A DNA stretch of 64,000 nt from an uncultured Mycoplasmatota bacterium (GCA_900544625.1 UQVR01000002.1:10639-74638); one strand, 5' to 3'. Counted from the stretch's first letter, positions 17,669-61,220 are shown. The notes: generated by a model not told the origin, from the sequence alone. Program-made: numbers and translations.

Positions 17669-18385
17669 TCAATACCAAATCTTTTCTAAATATAATCCGT
17701 CCGCTGGAACAACACTTAATTTATTATCTATATCTTTGTCTAACATATTTTCAATTATATGAATATCTACTTTACCTCTTCCAACATCAAGTAAAGCCCC
17801 CACTAGATGTCTAATCATATATCTATAAAAACCAATACCTACAAATTTAAATACAATAATATCTCCATGTTTTTTTATTTTAATATTATAAATCGTAGAT
17901 GTATAATCATCTCTATAACCACTTACAAAATTATGATAATCATGCGTACCAACTAATAACTTACTTGCATTTTTCATTTTTTTAATATCAAAATCATATT
18001 TTACTTGATAATAATATCCATCATATTCTTTCTTATATTTTCCATTATTTACTTTATAAACATACATTTTTTTTATAACATTATGCCTTGCATGGAAATC
18101 ATTACTAACAACACTAATTTTATTTATAATAATTTCATTATTTAACAATATATTTATTTTATCAATATCCTTATTGCTTACACTTCCATCATAATCAAAA
18201 TGGGCACATTGCATATGAGCATGAACTCCAGCATCTGTTCTTCCGCTACCTTTAATTAAAATATTACTTTTTAATACTTTACTTAAAGCATTTTCTAAAG
18301 TTCCTTGCATATTTTTTACATTATTTTGCCTTTGAAATCCATGAAACTTAGTACCGTCATAACCAAACTTAATTAAATATCTCAT
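17669..18385 (-). CDS. truA: tRNA pseudouridine(38-40) synthase TruA
   Basis: YDGT.FHGFQRQ and GSGRTDAGVHA catalytic motif. Confidence 0.95.
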   Translation of the reverse strand: MRYLIKFGYDGTKFHGFQRQNNVKNMQGTLENALSKVLKSNILIKGSGRTDAGVHAHMQCAHFDYDGSVSNKDIDKINILLNNEIIINKISVVSNDFHARHNVIKKMYVYKVNNGKYKKEYDGYYYQVKYDFDIKKMKNASKLLVGTHDYHNFVSGYRDDYTSTIYNIKIKKHGDIIVFKFVGIGFYRYMIRHLVGALLDVGRGKVDIHIIENMLDKDIDNKLSVVPADGLYLEKIWY

Positions 18386-18930
18386 GATTTTACCCTATAT
18401 ATAGCTTTTAATAAATCGTCTATTTCTTTATAATGATTAATATTAACACCAAGATCTAAAGATTTATTTGTAAATTCCACTATCTTGGGTACATCAATAT
18501 ATTTACTTAATTCATTACTATATAAATCATTAGTTTCTAATACAATTTCTTTGTTAATAACATACAAGTTATCAACACAATTAAAAAACAAATTGCTGTT
18601 TTTATCCACTAAAATAATTTTTCTTCCATAACTTACTATTTTTTTAAACAATTTTTTAAAAAATTCTATATCTTTATTTGTTAATCCTTTACTAAAATTT
18701 ACTAACAATATTTCTTTATCTTGTAATTTACTTGCTAAGATAACCTTACTTTTATTTCTTAATGATAAATCTTCATAATCAAGCTCTAAATAACTTCCAT
18801 CAAGCCCTACCATTTTTAAAGCATCGCTAGCTTTCTTTAATACTATATTTTTTACTTTACCACTATAATTGCTTTCACTAAAATCATTACTTATAACCCC
18901 GACAATATTACCTTTAAGCTCTAATTCCAT
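18382..18930 (-). CDS. Degenerate EcfA2-like protein (ABC ATPase relic without P-loop or catalytic motifs)
   Basis: Aligns by eye to the C-terminal two thirds of ECF ATPases. LSGGQ is replaced by LSLRN, Walker B LDEPT by VNFSK, and H-loop VTH by VDKNS. No Walker A region. Lies at the ecfA2 position upstream of truA. Confidence 0.55.
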   Translation of the reverse strand: MELELKGNIVGVISNDFSESNYSGKVKNIVLKKASDALKMVGLDGSYLELDYEDLSLRNKSKVILASKLQDKEILLVNFSKGLTNKDIEFFKKLFKKIVSYGRKIILVDKNSNLFFNCVDNLYVINKEIVLETNDLYSNELSKYIDVPKIVEFTNKSLDLGVNINHYKEIDDLLKAIYRVKS

Positions 18931-43676: not shown

Positions 43677-44399
43677 TTAAATAACCTCACTTTCAAATAA
43701 ATGTTGATAAGTATCTAGGTTATCAACACAAATCTCTTTTCTCAATTTAATTCCAGGTTTGCCATTTTTAACACACTTAACCAAAATTGTGTTCACAGCC
43801 TTTTCTTTTTTAGTTGAAATAAATTGTAATTCTTTAACATTCATTTTATTTTCTCGTGCTAAAACTATTATATCATCTAATCTTTCTACACGATGAACTA
43901 AATAAAACGCTTTATTACTTTTCAGATATTTACTTGCAATCTTAAAAATTGTCTCTAAATTAATGGCAATTTCATGACGAGCTAATGATAAAAAATCGTT
44001 TTTATTTCTATATCCATTTTCTTTTGTTTTAAAATATGGTGGATTACATGTTATTATATCAAATGTATTACTATCAAAATAATTATCTATGTTTTTAATA
44101 TCATCATTTATTATTTTAATATTTTTTTCTAAACCATTAATTTTTACTGACTCTAAGGCTAATTCACTAATTTCTTTTTGTATTTCAAAACCTATAATTT
44201 CCGCATCAGATTTTAAACTCAAAACCAAAGGTACCGGAGCATTTCCCGTACACATATCTAATATTTTTTTATCATCTTTTTTTATATTAACAAATTCTGC
44301 AAGCAAAAGTGAATCAAGTGAAAACTTAAAACCATCCTTCATTTGCATAATATATCTATTTTTATAATCAAATAGATCATTTTTCACTTTCGAAATCAT
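43677..44399 (-). CDS. tRNA1(Val) (adenine37-N6)-methyltransferase-like (YabB/TrmN6)
   Basis: DMCTGN SAM loop and NPPY motif (ITCNPPYF). Confidence 0.75.
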   Translation of the reverse strand: MISKVKNDLFDYKNRYIMQMKDGFKFSLDSLLLAEFVNIKKDDKKILDMCTGNAPVPLVLSLKSDAEIIGFEIQKEISELALESVKINGLEKNIKIINDDIKNIDNYFDSNTFDIITCNPPYFKTKENGYRNKNDFLSLARHEIAINLETIFKIASKYLKSNKAFYLVHRVERLDDIIVLARENKMNVKELQFISTKKEKAVNTILVKCVKNGKPGIKLRKEICVDNLDTYQHLFESEVI

Positions 44400-49229: not shown

Positions 49230-49311
49230 AAAAAAAAGTGCACACAAACATAGGCTGATGTGGCTGCTATTTTCCAATCCTGACCAAGTTACAGCATATT
49301 TGTTGCACGAG
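49230..49311 (-). ncRNA. ffs: Signal recognition particle RNA, minimal (helix 8 only) form
   Basis: - strand GTGCAACAAATATGCTGTAACTTGGTCAGGATTGGAAAATAGCAGCCACATCAGCCTATGTTTGTGTGCAC + U8. It contains GGUCAGG..GGAA tetraloop..AGCAGCC of SRP domain IV. The closing helix pairs end to end. Confidence 0.85.
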
Positions 49312-49314
49312 TAA

Positions 49315-49343
49315 ATCGTATCAAATATAAAGAAACATGTCAA
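49315..49343 (-). promoter_or_regulatory. Promoter of the SRP RNA
   Basis: - strand TTGACA (49343-49338), 17-nt spacer, TACGAT (49320-49315). The predicted start is a few nt before the closing helix. Confidence 0.55.
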
Positions 49344-49400
49344 TACTTTTTATTACATATATTCAAATTATATTTTTATATATTGTTTTAAATAATTTTG

Positions 49401-49409
49401 TGTTGATAA
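49401..49409 (-). promoter_or_regulatory. DnaA box variant TTATCAACA
   Basis: + strand tgttgataa. The same 9-mer is used repeatedly at oriC in this window. Confidence 0.5.
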
Positions 49410-49522
49410 CTTAAAATTGTTTATTATAAATATGATAAATTTTGGCTAATATATGCCTTAAAATAACAATAGGCAAAATAAAGTATAATTAAAATTTGCT
49501 AATTTTTATAAAAAACTTAAAT

Positions 49523-49538
49523 TATTTCCCGGGAAATA
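49523..49538. promoter_or_regulatory. Noc-binding site (NBS) palindrome, perfect
   Basis: TATTTCCCGGGAAATA. The palindrome extends to 20 bp (49521-49540). It contains the Bacillus NBS consensus ATTTCCCGGGAAAT. Confidence 0.7.
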
Positions 49539-49669
49539 ATTATTTTAAAAACTTTAAATTTTTCTTCTTTTCTTTTTATATTAAAAAAGTTCTTAATTCC
49601 TTTTATTACCTAGTACTTTTACAAAAAAATACATTATATATTTTTAATTAATATATTATGTTAACTAAA

Positions 49670-49685
49670 TATTTCCCGGGAAATA
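49670..49685. promoter_or_regulatory. Noc-binding site (NBS) palindrome, perfect
   Basis: TATTTCCCGGGAAATA. The palindrome extends to 20 bp (49668-49687). It lies 147 bp from the first copy. Confidence 0.7.
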
Positions 49686-49752
49686 TTACTTTTAAGATTT
49701 CATCAACATTTTACTCATTATTTGCAATGTTGCAAACGTATGTACGTCATAA

Positions 49753-49768
49753 TGTTTCACGTGAAACT
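49753..49768. promoter_or_regulatory. parS site 1 (15/16)
   Basis: TGTTTCACGTGAAACT versus the Firmicute parS consensus TGTTNCACGTGAAACA. Confidence 0.8.
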
Positions 49769-49868
49769 AAAATATAAAATTATATTTCATTTGTAAACGT
49801 ATAATTATTTTTTATTTACTAATTATTAACTATAAATAATTTCATATTCACATTTTATTAACATCAAT

Positions 49869-49884
49869 AGTTTCACGTGAAACA
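49869..49884. promoter_or_regulatory. parS site 2 (15/16)
   Basis: AGTTTCACGTGAAACA. TTATTAACA lies 5 nt upstream (49855-49863). Confidence 0.8.
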
Positions 49885-49997
49885 ATAAGCCTAATTTTTT
49901 TTATAATAATATAAATATAATATTTAATTAACAAATTAGAAACACAAAATTAAATATTTAATTGAAAAACATAACCTTTCAACAACTTATCAACATA

Positions 49998-50013
49998 TGT
50001 TTCACGTGAAACA
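49998..50013. promoter_or_regulatory. parS site 3 (16/16)
   Basis: TGTTTCACGTGAAACA. DnaA box TTATCAACA lies 2 nt upstream (49987-49995). Confidence 0.85.
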
Positions 50014-50129
50014 TAACAATATTGAGGTATTAAACATAAAAATAACAACAAAATTGAAATAATATTAATTTATAGTTGAATATTAATATTTATTTCATAT
50101 AAATAATATCAACAAGTTATCAACACAAA

Positions 50130-50145
50130 TGTTTCACGTGAAACA
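50130..50145. promoter_or_regulatory. parS site 4 (16/16)
   Basis: TGTTTCACGTGAAACA. TTATCAACA lies 4 nt upstream (50117-50125) and ATATCAACA lies at 50106-50114. Confidence 0.85.
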
Positions 50146-50347
50146 CAAAAGTAAATTATGGTTATGTATGAAATTTCTTAATTGAAATAAATAAAAATCA
50201 AATTAAGATAAATATAATATACAAAATTGTGTTTGAATACAAAAAAATATGATCATGTATTAAACATTGATTCAATTCCTTTTAAAAAAATATAATATCA
50301 TAAATTAATAATATTATTATAGTTGCAAATGAAAACTTATTAACATA

Positions 50348-50363
50348 TGTTTCACGTGAAACA
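50348..50363. promoter_or_regulatory. parS site 5 (16/16)
   Basis: TGTTTCACGTGAAACA. TTATTAACA lies 2 nt upstream (50337-50345). Confidence 0.85.
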
Positions 50364-50455
50364 AATAATATTATAAAAAGATATAATACTAAACAAAATA
50401 AATTAAATTTGATTTGATAATAATTAATAATTACATATACTCTATGTATAAAAAA

Positions 50456-50471
50456 AGTTTCACGTGAAACA
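50456..50471. promoter_or_regulatory. parS site 6 (15/16)
   Basis: AGTTTCACGTGAAACA. Confidence 0.8.
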
Positions 50472-50586
50472 ATTTTTTTTAAAATTAATTAATATACTAA
50501 TAATTATTGAATCTGCATATTTAAAAATAATTATTAAAATTTAACAATATACAAAGTATATACATAAGATAATTACTAAAAGAGAC

Positions 50587-53094
50587 TTATTCAGTCTCTT
50601 TTTCCTCGACTATAGCGCTTTCATTAGATACATTTTCACTCAAAGTGTTTAGTTCTTCTTCTGTAGATTCACTAACTTCTTCTTTTTCAACTAAACTTAT
50701 GGTTGATACTTTTTGATTATCCTTTAAGTTAATAAGTCTTAAACCTTGAGTTACACGTCCTAATAATGATATTTGATCTAAAGGCATTCTCATTGTCATA
50801 CCTGAATTAGTCATTATAACTAGTTCTTGATTATCTTGAACAATTTTAACACTAACTAAACTTCCGTTTTTATCAGTTATATTCATGGCTTTTACACCTT
50901 TTGATCCTCTTCTTGTTTGACGATATTCACTTACTTTAGTTTGCTTACCATAACCTTTTTCTGTTACTAATAAAATTGTATCATCTTCTTTAACAATTTC
51001 AGAACAAATACATTTACTTCCATCCAATGAAATCCCTCTGACACCTGAAGCTGTTCTACCCATAACTCTTATTTCATCTTCATTAAATTTAACCATTCTA
51101 CCGCTATCGCTACCTAGAAGTACTAAATCATTACCTGTTGTTTTTTTAACATCAATTAATTTATCATTTTCTCTTAAAGAAATACAAATCTTACCACTAT
51201 TTCTAATATTAGAAAATTCACTAATTAATGTTTTCTTAACAACTCCACCTTCTGTAGCAAATAATAAATATTTACATTCTTCTTCACGATTAATTTCAAT
51301 AATAGCATTAACTCTTTCATCTTTTTCCACTTGAAGTAAGTTAACAATTGGAATTCCTTTAGACTGACGAGAAAATTCTGGAATTTCGTAACCTTTAAGT
51401 CTATATACCTTACCTTTATCAGTAAAGAATAAAATATAATCATGTGTTGATAAGTTAATCATGTGTTCTACAAAATCTTCATCATTCGTAGTCATTCCCT
51501 TGATTCCAACACCACCACGGTTTTGTGATTTAAAAGTGTCTGACGTAGTTCTCTTAATATAACCCTTGTTAGTAAGTACTACCAAGATATTTTCTTCTGG
51601 TATTAAAGATTCATCTTCAATATAATCAACTGCTGTCATATCAATCTTAGTACGTCTTTCATCACCATATTTATTTTTAATTTCAGTCATTTCATCTTTA
51701 ATGATACCTAATACCTTATTATTATCCGCTAAAATGCCACGTAAACGTTCAATTTCGATTCTGAGTGCATTTAGTTCATCTTCAATTTTTTCACGTTCTA
51801 GACCCGTTAAACGACGTAATTTCATTTCTAGAATATTATCAGTTTGAGCTTCAGTTAATCCAAAACGTTCCATTAACTTGGATTTAGCTTCTCCATCAGC
51901 TTTTGATTCTTTAATAATCTTAATAACTTCATCAATATTATCAAATACAATTTGATAACCTTCTAAGATATGCACTCTTTTTTCTGCTTTATCTAATTCA
52001 AATTGAGTTCTTCTAATAATAATTTCTTGTTGATAATCTACATATTTACTAATTATATCTTTCAAACCTAGTGTTCTTGGAACCCCTTTATCAAGCATTA
52101 AGAAAATAATACCAAAAGTTGTTTGAAAAGCAGTATGTTTATACAAATTATTTAAAACTACCTGAGGATTTGCATCCTTTTTTAAAGTAATAGTTATTTT
52201 AATACCATCTTTTAAATCAGTGTGATAATCAGTAATACATTCAAGTACTTTATTATGTACTAAATCTGCTACTTTTTGTTTTAAATCAAGGGTATTAACA
52301 CCATAAGGAACTTCTTCGATAACAATATAATGTCTTCCATTTTTTTCTTCAATTGTTGCTTTACTTCTAATAGTAATTGATCCTCTACCAGTTTCATACG
52401 CTTTTTTAATTCCAGAATTACCTAAAATAATACCACCAGTTGGAAAATCAGGCCCTTTAACATGTTGCATTAATTCTTCCGTAGTAATTTCAGGATTATC
52501 TATATATGCAATACAACCATCAATAACTTCACCTAAATTATGTGGTGGAATATTTGTTGCCATACCAACAGCAATACCCATTGTTCCATTAACTAAAATA
52601 TTTGGAAATCTTGAGGGTAAAACTTCAGGTTCTTCAGTTGAATCATCATAATTTGGTACAAAATTAACCGTATTTTTATTGATATCTCTTAAAAGTTCCA
52701 TAGATATCTTAGCAAGTTTACTTTCAGTATAACGATAAGCGGCTGCTCTTGGATATTCAATATTACCAAAGTTACCATGTCCATCAACAAGTAAATAACG
52801 ATAATTAAAGTCTTGGGCCATTCTTACCATAGCCTCATAAATTGATGAATCTCCATGAGGATGATATTTCCCCATAACGTCCCCAACTATCGTCGCACTC
52901 TTACGATGTTTTTTATCTGGTGTTAATCCATTTTCTAACATATCATAAATAATTCTTCTATGAACTGGCTTTAAACCATCTCTTAAATCTGGTAAAGCTC
53001 TGGAAATAATAACACTCATTGAATATTCAATAAAAGAAGATTCAATTTCACTTACTATATTATTTTCTTCTAGTCTATCTCTACTATGATCCAT
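50587..53094 (-). CDS. gyrA: DNA gyrase subunit A
   Basis: [16 protein letters not shown], active-site region AAYRYTE, C-terminal beta-pinwheel repeats, acidic tail. Confidence 0.97.
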
Positions 53095-56237: not shown

Positions 56238-56666
56238 TTATCCTCGTGTTAAATACACTAACCACAACCTACTACATTTTAAAAGTTGATTATTAAACTT
56301 CGTAGGGGTTATACTAAAGCATTTTTTTTCACCATTTTTAAACAAAACAACAATACCATTCTGACTCTTTTCATAGTTTTGCACTTTATTAAAATTAAGC
56401 CAATAATAGCTTTTTTCTTCTTTTATTGGAAAAAAGATTATATTATTCTTTTCACTTATCATAATTGGTAACTTATAACAACCACCAAGAATATTTTTAC
56501 TTCCCATAATTCTTCCCTTCAAAGAACTACCATAATAAATACAACTAAAATTTAATATAGAATTTAATAAATTACCCCCAAATTTTAATTGATTATCTTC
56601 TTCATGAACAATAGTATTTTCGCCATTAAATTCCATAAAAAGAGTATTATTATTAATTTTAAACAT
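56238..56666 (-). CDS. comK: ComK-family transcription factor homologue
   Basis: SCIYYGSSLKGR..G......YKLPIMISEKNNIIFFP...W.......V.F.NG....I....F.NQ aligns by eye with the Bacillus ComK core (SCRFFGSSYAGR...HKPPIMVDPSNQIFLFP). Start set at MFKINNN after RBS aaggag. Confidence 0.75.
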   Translation of the reverse strand: MFKINNNTLFMEFNGENTIVHEEDNQLKFGGNLLNSILNFSCIYYGSSLKGRIMGSKNILGGCYKLPIMISEKNNIIFFPIKEEKSYYWLNFNKVQNYEKSQNGIVVLFKNGEKKCFSITPTKFNNQLLKCSRLWLVYLTRG

Positions 56667-56723
56667 TTTAATTCTCCTTTCTTGATTTGCTATAATAGCA
56701 AAACTTTTATAAAAAATTTGTCG

Positions 56724-56760
56724 AAAAAAAAAGAACAAGTTAATATTTTGTTCATTTTTT
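56724..56760 (-). terminator. Rho-independent terminator after dnaN
   Basis: gaacaa/ttgttc stem flanked by A9 and T-runs. Confidence 0.65.
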
Positions 56761-57883: not shown

Positions 57884-57894
57884 ATTTTTTCCTT

Positions 57895-58011
57895 CTTTCT
57901 TTATTAGTTTTTTTAATTATTATTTATTAATAGCGTTGATAATGTTGATAACTAATTAATTTACTTATTTTACTTAGAAAATCATTATTTTTTATACCCA
58001 ACTTATCAACA
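57895..58011. promoter_or_regulatory. oriC, dnaA-dnaN part: AT-rich tract plus DnaA boxes
   Basis: AT-only tract at 57895-57933. Abutting boxes cgttgataa (57934-57942) and tgttgataa (57943-57951), both on the - strand. TTATCAACA at 58003-58011 abuts the dnaA stop. Confidence 0.75.
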
Positions 58012-59355
58012 TTATTGTAACTTCATTTTTATTTCTTTCAACACATTATTTAAATTCGGATTAGTTTCTAATTCTTCTTTTATCTTATCACATGCTGTTG
58101 ATACTGTAGAATGATCTCTACCCCCGAATTCAAGTCCTATTTTCTGTAAATTTTCATCTGTTTCAACTCTACATAAGTACATTGCTATATGTCTAGGTTT
58201 TACTACTGTATTAGTTCTTCGTTTACTTTTTAAATCATCTACCGATATTTTAAAATATTCTGCAACAGCATTTTGGATAGAACCAATCGAATTGTTGATA
58301 AATATGTTAGTATTAACATAATCATTTAATGCTTCGTTAGCAAAATCCAAAGTAATTTTATCAGGAACCATCATTGCTGTGTAAGCTAGCAACCTGTTTA
58401 TAGTTCCTTCAATGTGTCTAACATCATTAACACATGAATTAGCAATATATTCTATAACATCATTAGTTAATTTATCTTCAATACTGGTATTTTTTATCTT
58501 TGATCTTATAATATCACATCTTAGATTAAAGTCTGGAGGGAATATATCAACAGGAAGTCCCCACATAAACCTACTTCTAAGTCTTTCTTCGATTTTCTTT
58601 AAGTCATCCGGACTCTTATCACTACTAATAATTATTTGTTTATTTGCTTGATGCAAAGCATTAAATGTATGAAAGAATTCTTGTTGCGTTTTTTCTGCTT
58701 CAACTAAAAATTGAATATCATCTATAATTAATACATCTACATTACGATATTTATCTTTAAAATCATTAGCATATCCCATTTTATTATTACTTGTAGCAAT
58801 ACCAGTAAATTCATCTCTAAATTCATTACTTGTTGTATATAATACCTTTAAATTAGAATGATCTTTAATATAATTACCAATTGCTTGCATTAAATGTGTT
58901 TTCCCTATTCCACTTCGTCCATATATAAATAACGGATTGTGGATAGTTCCCGGAGCTTCCGCAACTGCTCTGGCTGCAACAAATGCAAGTCTATTTGAAT
59001 TACCTACTACATAGTTATCAAAAGTAAATTTTGGATTTAAATTTGTATTCCATTCTATATCTTTTTCAACAGTTTCTTCAGGAACAATAGGTTCAACAAA
59101 GTTTTCAACTTCTTCTTCAGTAATATAATTAAATGTATAATTTATACCAGTTAAAGCAAAAAATGTATTACTTATAAGATCTTTATATGTTTCTCCAAGC
59201 ATTTTTTTAGTTATTTGTAATCCAACCTTTATTGTTACTACATTGTTAACAATCGATAATAGTTCAAGTTTTGAAAACCAAATATTATAAATTGTATCGC
59301 TAACTTGATTCTGAATATCTTTTAAAAAATGTGAAAAAAGCTCATCAGTTTTCAA
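58012..59355 (-). CDS. dnaA: Chromosomal replication initiator protein DnaA
   Basis: Walker A GRSGIGKTHL, IIDDIQFL, box VII, and the C-terminal DNA-binding helix (GGRDHSTV). Confidence 0.97.
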   Translation of the reverse strand: MKTDELFSHFLKDIQNQVSDTIYNIWFSKLELLSIVNNVVTIKVGLQITKKMLGETYKDLISNTFFALTGINYTFNYITEEEVENFVEPIVPEETVEKDIEWNTNLNPKFTFDNYVVGNSNRLAFVAARAVAEAPGTIHNPLFIYGRSGIGKTHLMQAIGNYIKDHSNLKVLYTTSNEFRDEFTGIATSNNKMGYANDFKDKYRNVDVLIIDDIQFLVEAEKTQQEFFHTFNALHQANKQIIISSDKSPDDLKKIEERLRSRFMWGLPVDIFPPDFNLRCDIIRSKIKNTSIEDKLTNDVIEYIANSCVNDVRHIEGTINRLLAYTAMMVPDKITLDFANEALNDYVNTNIFINNSIGSIQNAVAEYFKISVDDLKSKRRTNTVVKPRHIAMYLCRVETDENLQKIGLEFGGRDHSTVSTACDKIKEELETNPNLNNVLKEIKMKLQ

Positions 59356-59431: not shown

Positions 59432-59637
59432 TTTTGATAACTTTTTTATAATCCCCAAAATTATCAACAGAGAAAAGTCTTATTTTATGCTTATTTAAAC
59501 AAGTTATCAACATTATCAACAAATTTTTGTTAACATAGTATTTATCCCCATTCTATCAACAAACACAATTTTGATAAAATGTTGTTAATTATGTGGATTA
59601 TTTTTGATAGTTATCCACAAATTATCCACAATCCACA
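59432..59637. promoter_or_regulatory. oriC, upstream-of-dnaA DnaA-box cluster and strand-switch point
   Basis: TTATCCACA at 59611-59619 and 59622-59630. TTATCAACA at 59461-59469, 59504-59512 and 59513-59521. One-mismatch boxes at 59542-59550, 59553-59561 and 59592-59600 (reverse). Gene orientation flips here. Confidence 0.85.
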
Positions 59638-59688: not shown

Positions 59689-60507
59689 ATGGAAAAAGTA
59701 GCAATTTTAAATGATATACATGGTAATTTATTTTTATTAAATAAAGTTCTAGATTATTTAAAAGATAAGAATATATCTAAATTTTTAGTTTGTGGAGATT
59801 TTTTAACGGATGGACCAGATGATAATAAAATTATAGAAAAATTAAGAAATCTAAATGCTGAAGTTATTCTAGGAAATAGGGAAGAATCATTATTAAAATT
59901 AACACCTAATTCTGGTGAAATATCTGAAAAATTTTATTCATTTTATTATACTTACAAAAATTTAACATTAGAAAACCTAGAATATCTAAAAAAGTTACCC
60001 ACAACAAAAATAATAAATATTGCTAATAAGAAAATTTGTATGTCTCATGGAAGTCCTTATAAAAGTCGGGATATGATAGATTCAACGTCATATGAACAAT
60101 TTGCTAAATTAATAATTGATTATGATGCAGATGTGTATTTGTTTGCACATACACACAAATATTTTGAAAAAGTCTACAAAAATAGATTGTTTGTAAATTC
60201 CGGAGCAGTTAATTTATCCATGGGCAGATCAAAAGTGTCAACATTTGGAATTTTATCTTTATCTGATGATTTAATTATATATGACCAAATAATTTTAGAT
60301 TATGATTTTGAAAAAGTAAAAAGGTATTATACTGAAAGTAATTTTTATAAAGAACATCCCGAATGGTGCAAAATTATATTATATATGCTAAAAGATGGTA
60401 TAGAATATAATACAAAATTCTCTAAAATGTATGATTACAATAAAAGTTTAAAAACAAATTATTACAAATTTACATTTATATATAATCTTCCAAAAATAGT
60501 TGAATAA
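59689..60507 (+). CDS. Calcineurin-like metallophosphoesterase
   Basis: DIHGN, GD, GNRE and a later H..H motif set. Extended -10 TGaTATAAT lies about 20 nt upstream. Confidence 0.75.
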   Translation: MEKVAILNDIHGNLFLLNKVLDYLKDKNISKFLVCGDFLTDGPDDNKIIEKLRNLNAEVILGNREESLLKLTPNSGEISEKFYSFYYTYKNLTLENLEYLKKLPTTKIINIANKKICMSHGSPYKSRDMIDSTSYEQFAKLIIDYDADVYLFAHTHKYFEKVYKNRLFVNSGAVNLSMGRSKVSTFGILSLSDDLIIYDQIILDYDFEKVKRYYTESNFYKEHPEWCKIILYMLKDGIEYNTKFSKMYDYNKSLKTNYYKFTFIYNLPKIVE

Positions 60508-60557
60508 TTAAAATAATATGTTAAAATATTTTAATATGTTGAAGGGAAGGTTTTGAC

Positions 60558-61220
60558 ATGGCAAATATTTTAGAATCAAAAACAAGATTAAAACAAATTC
60601 TTTATACAAATAAAGATAAATTTACAAAAGAAATATTCGATTATTTAAATTCATTATTAGAATTAGAATTTGCAGTAACTAAAGATTATATAAATTCAAA
60701 AACAAGAATAGAATTATCACAAGATGAAACTTATTACCAAGTAGCTTTATATAATATTTATCATTTAATAGACAATTTACTTACAAGACTTGATACAACA
60801 AAATTTATTAGTTTCGATAAACTTTCACATTATGATTCATATGAAATGCAAGGAATATTAAAATTAAGAGATGAAACAAATGCTAATTTATTTAGATTAA
60901 TTAGAATATTATATAATTTTGATGGTTGGCAAAATATTTCTATTGTTAATGACTTATACTTATCAAGTGAAGGAGACGTTACGAGAAAAAAAGCGGAAGA
61001 ATTCTTTATAAAAAGAGATTTATCGCAAGAATTGCACAAAGAATTATTACAAGAATTTGACTTAGAAAAAATAGAATTTTTAACCATTCCTTCAAAATTA
61101 ATTAAGGAAGATATTGGGTGGAGTACAAGTGTTACCAAAAAAGAACAAAAATTAGTACGAACTCTACCAGGAATAACATTTATCCATGAAATACACCAAG
61201 AATATTTTGCAAAAAAGTAG
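60558..61220 (+). CDS. Hypothetical helical protein (220 aa)
   Basis: Intact ORF with RBS gaagggaagg. No recognisable motif. Confidence 0.5.
   Translation: MANILESKTRLKQILYTNKDKFTKEIFDYLNSLLELEFAVTKDYINSKTRIELSQDETYYQVALYNIYHLIDNLLTRLDTTKFISFDKLSHYDSYEMQGILKLRDETNANLFRLIRILYNFDGWQNISIVNDLYLSSEGDVTRKKAEEFFIKRDLSQELHKELLQEFDLEKIEFLTIPSKLIKEDIGWSTSVTKKEQKLVRTLPGITFIHEIHQEYFAKK

Follow-up and report, generated by a model that had tools for sequence, protein, structure and literature searches.

The window analysed here, a stretch of 64,000 nucleotides from an uncultured Mycoplasmatota bacterium (GCA_900544625.1 UQVR01000002.1:10639-74638), is AT-rich (26% G+C) and carries an origin region with a gene order of the classic Firmicute type on the minus strand, namely dnaA (58012-59355), dnaN, an open reading frame (ORF) of the ComK family, recF, gyrB, and gyrA (50587-53094). 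On the other side of a 1.3-kb gap from gyrA lie the gene for the signal recognition particle (SRP) RNA, a tadA-like deaminase gene, dnaX, ybaB, and recR, and the GC skew flips sign at 59-60 kb, that is, at the region upstream of dnaA. The gap, hereafter the island, is devoid of any ORF of at least 60 aa and contains six parS sites for the partition protein ParB, two exact Noc-binding sites (NBS), five exact copies of the 9-mer TTATYAACA, and three weaker copies. Four of the parS are each preceded, at 2-5 nt, by one of the exact 9-mers, and the comparisons described below indicate that these 9-mers are very probably genuine DnaA boxes kept next to parS by selection. The features of the island are as follows.

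49313-50586, unstranded: the island itself, non-coding, bounded by the SRP RNA gene ffs and by the 3' end of gyrA; distance to the replication origin (oriC) ~9 kb
49232-49312, minus strand: SRP RNA gene (ffs), left border of the island
50587-53094, minus strand: gyrA, right border of the island
49401-49409, minus strand: reverse TTATCAACA box upstream of the ffs promoter, with the surrounding block TTTTGTGTTGATAAC kept in the nearest species (L005)
49523-49538, unstranded: NBS 1, palindrome TATTTCCCGGGAAATA, exact Noc-binding site, 15/16 identical in L005
49670-49685, unstranded: NBS 2, palindrome TATTTCCCGGGAAATA, exact Noc-binding site
49753-49768, unstranded: parS 1, TGTTTCACGTGAAACT, terminal site without a box
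49844-49884, plus strand: module 2, with weak box ATATTCACA (49844-49852), tt, TTATTAACA (49855-49863), 5 nt, and parS 2 (49869-49884); 36/41 identical in L005
49976-50013, plus strand: module 3, with weak box CTTTCAACA (49976-49984), ac, TTATCAACA (49987-49995), 2 nt, and parS 3 (49998-50013); 35/38 identical in L005
50106-50145, plus strand: module 4, with ATATCAACA (50106-50114), ag, TTATCAACA (50117-50125), 4 nt, and parS 4 (50130-50145); 39/40 identical in L005
50337-50363, plus strand: module 5, with TTATTAACA (50337-50345), 2 nt, and parS 5 (50348-50363); a second upstream box is not recognisable
50456-50471, unstranded: parS 6, AGTTTCACGTGAAACA, terminal site closest to gyrA, without a box

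Measured against the Firmicute-type 16-bp palindrome TGTTNCACGTGAAACA, three of the parS (starting at 49753, 49869, 49998, 50130, 50348, and 50456) are perfect (TGTTTCACGTGAAACA) and three have one mismatch. All six lie inside 720 bp, 9 kb from oriC, and thus agree with parS in both sequence and oriC-proximal clustering; no further parS with fewer than three mismatches occurs anywhere in the 64 kb. An earlier note on this DNA, which had described the boxes before parS 2-5 and proposed that they form composite modules with parS, proved accurate in its positions and plus-strand orientation for the two TTATCAACA and two TTATTAACA boxes, in the gaps of 5, 2, 4, and 2 nt to parS 2-5, and in the reverse box at 49401-49409 and the ATATCAACA element at 50106-50114. 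The island is not an assembly artefact, because an independent public assembly (L156, the sole match when the window's GyrA was looked up) carries an identical one. Among public genomes, those nearest to the window are metagenome-assembled genomes of uncultured gut "Bacilli", "Clostridium sp. CAG:609", "Firmicutes bacterium CAG:460", Candidatus Onthocola, and Candidatus Faecimonas, which NCBI places in Bacilli incertae sedis; we take the organism's group to be the one named RF39 in GTDB.

Within the window, TTATYAACA occurs 33 times, against 7.8 ± 2.5 times in shuffled sequence (an excess of ~4-fold), its density per kb falling from 12-16 in the oriC spacers to 3.9 in the island and to 0.5 over the window as a whole. 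An exact calculation under a first-order Markov model whose parameters came from the island sequence, counting a box 0-6 nt from parS on either side, gave a chance probability of 0.002 per parS and a P(≥4 of 6) of 2.4e-10, a value that assumes independence of the sites. Since repeats need not be independent, comparison across species is the decisive test. When the six parS were aligned together with 50 nt on each side, and likewise in a repeat search, similarity extended only over the ~30 nt of box plus parS, with unrelated intervening DNA, and hitchhiking within a long repeat was therefore rejected for the window. A promoter reading of the 9-mers was likewise rejected, as (i) a sigma-70-type scan of the island returned 21 matches against 18.5 ± 4.7 in shuffles and (ii) the −35-like TTGATA within the reversed box lacks a −10 element at a workable distance; the same scan found no terminators in the island.

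We next compared the gyrA-downstream regions of 80 species, comprising 69 relatives and 11 outgroups. A parS array of 2-18 copies is present at the same place downstream of gyrA in nearly all 69 relatives, and no such array was found there in the 11 outgroups (Haloplasma, Metaclostridioides, Bacteroidota, and others). When a box with at most one mismatch was sought 0-10 nt from each of 305 parS at 63 loci, it lay on the side away from gyrA with its CACA end toward parS at 110 of them, whereas the control placements yielded only 3 (mirror) and 5 and 7 (the two inverted arrangements). Gaps of 1, 2, 3, 4, and 5 nt account for 31, 18, 37, 10, and 12 sites, respectively. In the window's own clade (~30 species, with a GyrA C-terminal identity of roughly at least 77%), 104/140 internal parS have a box, as against 3/57 terminal (first or last) ones. 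Moreover, the modules are identical to those of L005 at 204/221 positions (92%), while the rest of the island is identical at 581/966 (60%).

Strand skew does not account for the one-sided placement of boxes relative to parS. The excess of plus-strand boxes across the island (68:18 in clade A, which is the window's clade, and 43:5 in clade B) was dropped as evidence, because the C-over-G skew of the strand predicts about that much. The island of clade A is itself enriched, with TTATCAACA at 2.48 per kb as compared with 0.38 elsewhere; the clade-B enrichment from the same count is overstated, several of its "boxes" falling in the gyrA coding tail. The arrays of L011 and L014 contain fresh tandem duplications with repeat units of 84-95 bp, and the sequences portray arrays that grow by duplication, after which the spacers decay and box and parS stay, which argues for selection on both elements rather than hitchhiking. 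Hence, the pairing in related genomes that the earlier note had proposed to check is kept in ~30 species among the 63 loci examined, and its concern that TTATYAACA might in such AT-rich DNA fall beside any site by chance is contradicted by the shuffles, the Markov model, and the cross-species placement counts alike. The fixed juxtaposition that it envisaged does not hold, as the spacing ranges over 1-5 nt across species and the geometry also varies.

This variation in geometry is seen in the sister lineages, where canonical boxes stand next to parS in lineages whose DnaA keeps the canonical recognition residues, in arrangements that differ from the window's. In L137, L139, and L140, a parS-t-TGTGGATAA-aatt-ATTTCCCGGGAAAT triplet, the last element of which is an NBS, occurs at 5/6 parS per island. 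In L101, TGTGGATAA lies 0-2 nt from 3/5 parS with its TTAT end toward parS; in the L042, L085, and L086 species, TGTGGAAAA lies 3-6 nt from 2/6 parS, with near-matches at a third; and in L094, TGTGGAAAA stands beside 2/3 parS. A box 0-6 nt from parS is thus found in at least three independent geometries. A further sister-clade element, observed in L044-L063, L070, and L072, is a repeated TTWTCCACAGG with an ACGCA/TGCGT motif ~15-25 nt away, in one orientation. They are located both within the coding tail of gyrA, some overlapping the acidic C-terminal tail of GyrA, and 120-330 nt beyond the gyrA stop codon; DnaA boxes accompanied by a partner site are one possible identity, though not the only one.

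The window's 9-mers TTATCAACA and TTATTAACA depart from the consensus TTWTNCACA at position 6 (and 5), that is, by one mismatch. That they are nevertheless DnaA boxes is supported by the organism's own oriC, where the positions reported by the earlier note for TTATCAACA (59461, 59504, 59513, 58003, and, on the minus strand, 57943) were all recovered, giving five exact copies in the following two spacers.

57884-58011, unstranded: dnaA-dnaN spacer (oriC2), in minus-strand reading a tandem TTATCAACA-TTATCAACg followed by TAT TAA TAA, with another TTATCAACA abutting the dnaA stop codon
59356-59688, unstranded: region upstream of dnaA (oriC1), with TTATCAACA at 59461, 59504, and 59513 and TTATCCACA-aa-TTATCCACA at 59611-59630

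The TTATCAACA-type 9-mer is the majority box at oriC in the window's clade, and all through the clade (~25 related species) the dnaA-dnaN spacer keeps TTATCAACA or TGTTGATAA as its conserved box. The flanks are shared as well: AACAAG/AACAAC-TTATCAACA is common to the modules and oriC, and AACAAGTTATCAACA occurs both at oriC (59498-59512) and in modules 3 and 4. Further, a logo anchored on the box at 108 sites, in which we examined positions that had not been used in selecting the sites, gave the upstream consensus TTAwtAACA-an-TTATCAACA, with 0.5-1.4 bits of information at A-9, A-6, A-5, C-4, and A-3 as compared with 0.05-0.25 bits elsewhere. This describes a second box 2 bp away, in the same orientation and an 11-bp register. 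The second box is the weaker of the two and, in the window, is represented by ATATTCACA, CTTTCAACA, and ATATCAACA at modules 2, 3, and 4; the same 2-bp spacing recurs at the window's oriC between the canonical TTATCCACA boxes at 59611 and 59622.

The DnaA proteins were compared at residues that contact the bases of the box. A homolog search with the window's DnaA returned only proteins at least 89% identical to it, and the sister clade, whose DnaA is ~48% identical, was reached by a metagenome scan with DnaN. P423, T435, and H439 of E. coli belong to a set of six base-contacting residues that are reportedly conserved in both Firmicutes and E. coli (PMC7561715, PMC2533591). At these positions, 120/120 close homologs have Q/M/I, S, and T, respectively, whereas the sister clade keeps the equivalents of P423 and H439; S occupies the T435 position in both clades. 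This change of recognition residues in the window's clade fits, as a tendency, a shift of its boxes from CCACA to CAACA. The C-terminal domain of DnaA (encoded within dnaA, 58012-59355) also reads PRH in the window's clade versus PRQ in the sister clade. The core of the earlier note, that DnaA-box-like 9-mers of the organism's own oriC type form composite modules with parS, is borne out by (i) conservation across species, (ii) the 92% versus 60% footprint, (iii) the second box in its 2-bp register, and (iv) the canonical boxes that occur at parS elsewhere.

The island also bears on Noc. Its two NBS are exact 16-mers of the ATTTCCCGGGAAAT palindrome, almost every relative likewise has NBS palindromes beside its parS array, and pairs of parS and NBS at fixed distances are frequent in the sister clade (loci with NBS include L047, L050, L064, L066, L069, L071, L137, and L139). 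In B. subtilis, NBS are scattered, in contrast to this grouping with parS in an island near the origin. The only ParB-family gene near the origin, which lies after rsmG at 17509-18657 of L001, ~18 kb to the right of dnaA and beyond the window, is of Noc type, with nucleoid_noc as its best NCBIfam match. In an alignment made by hand and judged by eye, its product has Q, K, T, and R at the four specificity positions, in keeping with the residue rule of Q173/K179-or-K184/R201 for Noc (PMC7383237); a ParB cognate to parS would have a recognition helix of the R173/G201 type. The protein, of 382 aa, has a long low-complexity C-terminal half, shows no match to the Noc model past residue 210, and has no adjoining ParA. 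The ParA-type Walker A motif KGG[VTIS]GK[TS] is absent from all frames of the window, and no ParA gene was found among the called genes of L001-L004, in 10 kb beyond the window, or in ~150 loci. A tblastn search for a second, parS-type ParB-family gene found none in the window, in 10 kb beyond it, or in ~150 loci. The genes for a parS-type ParB and for ParA must therefore lie elsewhere in the genome or be absent, and the Soj/ParA route to DnaA regulation mentioned by the earlier note is neither supported nor excluded, no ParA having been found in the window or the fetched loci. Judging by its predicted DnaA, ParB, and Noc sites, the island would be a landing pad for three proteins.

We propose that the island acts as an origin-proximal DnaA-box cluster (DBC), a sink or regulator of DnaA like the DBCs of B. 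subtilis or datA of E. coli, interleaved with the centromere. Several boxes are indeed enriched here in an origin-proximal non-coding tract, as in clusters outside oriC. The dense packing of such clusters is missing, the strong boxes lying 130-220 bp apart, one per parS, with only the pairs in 2-bp register being dense. At the observed spacings, the stretch of DNA covered by domain IV of a single DnaA, or by a few DnaA molecules assembled head to tail from the paired boxes, would touch or overlap that covered by a ParB dimer nucleating on its 16-bp parS, and each protein should thus restrict binding of the other. Bound DnaA would impede the loading of ParB, or the escape of its clamps, on one side, and two DnaA molecules arranged head to tail across the tandem boxes would make a longer obstacle; ParB nucleation would in turn cap the amount of DnaA held by the island. 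Since the island lies 9 kb from oriC, it would double within seconds of initiation, and this early doubling would tie both free DnaA and assembly of the ParB (and Noc) complex to one event. Because the spacing varies by 4-5 bp (~140 degrees of helix) and the box takes either side or orientation across lineages, a stereospecific DnaA-ParB contact is unlikely. The conserved property would instead be closeness, and we favour coupling by proximity, whether steric or oligomer-mediated, over a fixed protein-protein contact.

A DBC- or datA-type cluster whose occupancy and ParB clamp loading or escape limit each other is the best reading that we can offer, although we would place it somewhat short of an even chance; the mutual-exclusion and titration mechanism taken by itself is likewise tentative, and nearer to doubtful than to probable. 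Several points weigh against it. Both clades mix box variants at oriC, so that the variant found beside parS only tends to match the one at oriC, and the idea that it follows the latter strictly is weakened. The recent tandem duplications inflate the site counts. In many sister lineages the parS arrays have no adjacent box, and the pairing is therefore not essential for a parS array. A parS-type ParB is missing from the window and the ~150 loci. Finally, mutual exclusion is inferred from spacing alone, as is everything past the sequence pattern, and the organisms are uncultured.

Four other explanations were weighed, given here in order of falling probability. DnaA might be a polar roadblock or insulator, which stops ParB-CTP clamps on one side of each parS and, in the triplets, splits ParB clamps from Noc clamps; clamps would then be confined to the ~100-bp intervals of the array, giving a compact partition complex, and a role in initiation control would be unneeded. 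The boxes of an array do all lie on the same side of their parS, the box of L137/L139 lies exactly between parS and NBS, and the terminal parS are box-free, so that only the outer sites would load clamps able to leave the array. ParB sliding is known to be limited by roadblocks, and ParB is also reported to bypass them via dimer-dimer recruitment (PMC9242446). With this bypass, with a single DnaA domain IV being a small and dynamic obstacle, and with the tandem second box left unexplained, we consider the roadblock unlikely. By analogy with Caulobacter, DnaA or DnaA-ATP at the centromere might instead license segregation positively, by activating ParB/SMC loading or origin segregation, with the same rise in DnaA firing oriC. 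In that organism, DnaA occupies boxes within the parS region, and translocation of the centromere requires DnaA-ATP (Mera, Kalogeraki and Shapiro 2014, as summarised in PMC6399470). The tandem boxes here turn their CACA end to parS, with the polarity of the dnaA-dnaN spacer boxes before TAT TAA TAA. But the box faces the opposite way in L101, L042, and L094, the terminal parS and many sister-lineage arrays are box-free, and the Caulobacter mechanism needs ParA, none of which was seen in the window or in L001-L004; such licensing is decidedly unlikely.

Adjacency to parS could also be incidental to a plain DnaA-box cluster, box and parS sharing the sole sizeable non-coding tract near oriC and duplicating as a unit. 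Growth of the arrays by tandem duplication (the 84-95-bp units of L014 and L011) would produce this, and the sister lineages that keep TTWTCCACA elements in the same island do so away from parS. This explanation is nonetheless quite improbable, for box and parS persist while the spacers have diverged beyond recognition, the 0-6 nt spacing is held in at least three independent geometries, and boxes placed on the opposite side or turned the opposite way are 15-35 times less frequent. That the 9-mer is no DnaA site at all, but an extension of ParB recognition or the site of another protein, is very improbable: while the departure of TTATCAACA from TTWTNCACA at position 6 and the failure to find a parS-type ParB in the window or the ~150 loci leave some room for it, a symmetric dimer would hardly recognise a 9-mer that lies on only one side of the palindrome and at a distance of 1-5 nt, oriC is filled with identical 9-mers in identical flanks, the universal TGTGGATAA takes its place at parS in sister lineages, and the terminal parS are perfect yet lack the 9-mer.

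Two extensions of the proposed cluster, in which occupancy and clamp loading limit each other, are more speculative. In the dnaA-dnaN spacer, the tandem boxes are followed past their CACA end by the trio-like TAT TAA TAA, and the modules hold parS at that position; a DnaA-ATP oligomer may thus be aimed at parS, an idea that does not fit the box orientation of the L101 type. In this group of gut Bacilli, DnaA could also be a built-in component of the centromere, with short DnaA-ATP oligomers on the tandem boxes, aimed at the neighbouring parS or lying between parS and the Noc site, gating either the loading of CTP-dependent ParB and Noc clamps or the direction in which they escape. We think this unlikely, but if it were true, the nucleotide state of the initiator would directly control the time and place at which the machineries of segregation and nucleoid occlusion are assembled, perhaps with no need of ParA, which would amount to a hard-wired three-protein switch for replication, segregation, and division, of a kind not previously described.

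Among known systems, the Caulobacter centromere shares with the island DnaA boxes inside an origin-near parS region, where binding of the initiator connects initiation with segregation (PMC6399470). Its boxes are reportedly few and confined to one region, with no repeated box-parS unit, and are said to act through ParA; here, the lineage is of the Firmicute type, Noc sites are present too, and no ParA is seen near the origin. The B. subtilis DBCs resemble the island as clusters of boxes in origin-proximal intergenic DNA. Those proximal to oriC restrain initiation in synergy with Spo0J (PMC3245932), and the ywcI-vpr cluster, one of the two most important, adjoins a Spo0J-bound parS (PMC2533591). 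In these clusters the box spacing averages 4-21 bp (PMC2533591), the usual rule for a cluster being at least three boxes with a mean distance below 100 bp. Each is a dense cluster of its own with no reported box or box pair per parS, whereas the island has one module per parS at 1-5 bp. E. coli datA, which works partly via its early duplication near oriC and whose boxes share a direction that implies head-to-tail DnaA (PMC5742627), is likewise non-coding, near oriC, and early duplicating, with its boxes in one direction. However, it requires an IHF site and promotes DnaA-ATP hydrolysis, and E. coli has neither parS nor ParB.

Initiator and ParB sites are interleaved in rctA/parS2 of V. cholerae chromosome II and in the secondary replicons of Deinococcus, which brings replication and partition proteins together on one stretch of DNA (PMC6399470, PMC3141006, PMC7671480). 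The former is a secondary replicon with the plasmid-type initiator RctB, whereas the island belongs to the main chromosome and to DnaA; the latter have their elements at the replicon's own origin, whereas the array here is 9 kb from oriC. In the basal unwinding system of oriC, two boxes at most 3 bp apart are followed by a short gap and then by DnaA-trios (PMC8287927), and the orientation of the proximal boxes is critical (PMC6669920). The likeness is in layout only, as the modules have parS in place of trios, have the stronger box proximal, and are followed by no AT-rich unwinding element. In a literature search of incomplete coverage, we found no account, at base-pair level, of box-parS modules recurring through the parS array of a chromosome, and none of parS-box-NBS triplets. 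The earlier note's remark that the arrangement is not a described one thus stands for the repeated modules, while the Caulobacter parS region and B. subtilis ywcI-vpr are partial precedents for it; the arrangement would be a novel form of two known things, DnaA-box clusters and the binding of DnaA to a centromere.

The coordination of initiation, segregation, and division is partly understood and has been studied mainly via diffusible intermediates (Soj/ParA) or distant titration sites. The repeated placement of an initiator site 0-6 bp from where ParB, and in some lineages Noc too, is loaded predicts a direct interaction on DNA, and the pairing points to a possible physical link between the start of replication and chromosome organisation. 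The natural variation in geometry (three layouts, spacings of 0-6 bp, and box-bearing as well as box-free lineages) provides a ready-made mutant series. Similarly, the DnaA of the window's clade, in which 2/6 of the reported conserved base-contacting residues are lost and a third is conservatively changed (T435 to S), coinciding with the change from CCACA to CAACA, offers a natural case of the evolution of initiator specificity. The pairing of boxes with parS should be of interest to work on initiation control and on the ParB and Noc CTP clamps.

A number of further features were observed at the island. The palindrome of parS commonly runs past its 16 bp, with sequence that varies by site, extending by at least 4 nt per arm at 72 of the 305 sites as compared with ~13 expected; the extension is seen in both clades, with or without a box, and correction of a quasi-palindrome or selection for hairpin or cruciform potential are possible causes. 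Most species of the clade (L008, L017, L021-L023, L027-L030, L035, L038, and L040) have a conserved motif resembling ACATTTGTTCG ahead of the array's first parS, and in the window it takes the form gcaaacgtatgtacg at 49731-49745. A minus-strand box to the left of the parS array, as at 49401-49409, is found also in L009, L014, L020, L021, L027, and L035. Between this reverse box and NBS 1, at 49441-49465, lies a block (TTTTGGCTAATATATGCCTTAAAAT) with an inverted repeat GGC...GCC that is near-perfect in L005.

Outside the island, inverted or clustered TTATYAACA boxes occur inside coding DNA, as TGTTGATAA-9 nt-TTATCAACA at 43702-43728, in the 3' end of an ORF at 43677-44399, and three box-like 9-mers fall within 60 nt at 18552-18610, in an ORF at 18382-18930; these may be further DnaA sites or chance occurrences. 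The ComK-family ORF between dnaN and recF (56238-56738, minus strand) corresponds to a 142-aa gene call in L001-L004 that is matched by Pfam ComK and has no NCBIfam hit; the same interval is occupied by yaaA in B. subtilis. At 59689-61220 (plus strand), a metallophosphoesterase gene and a gene for a 220-aa protein without a family lie between the DnaA-box region and rpmH, whereas in the sister clade rpmH adjoins the boxes directly.

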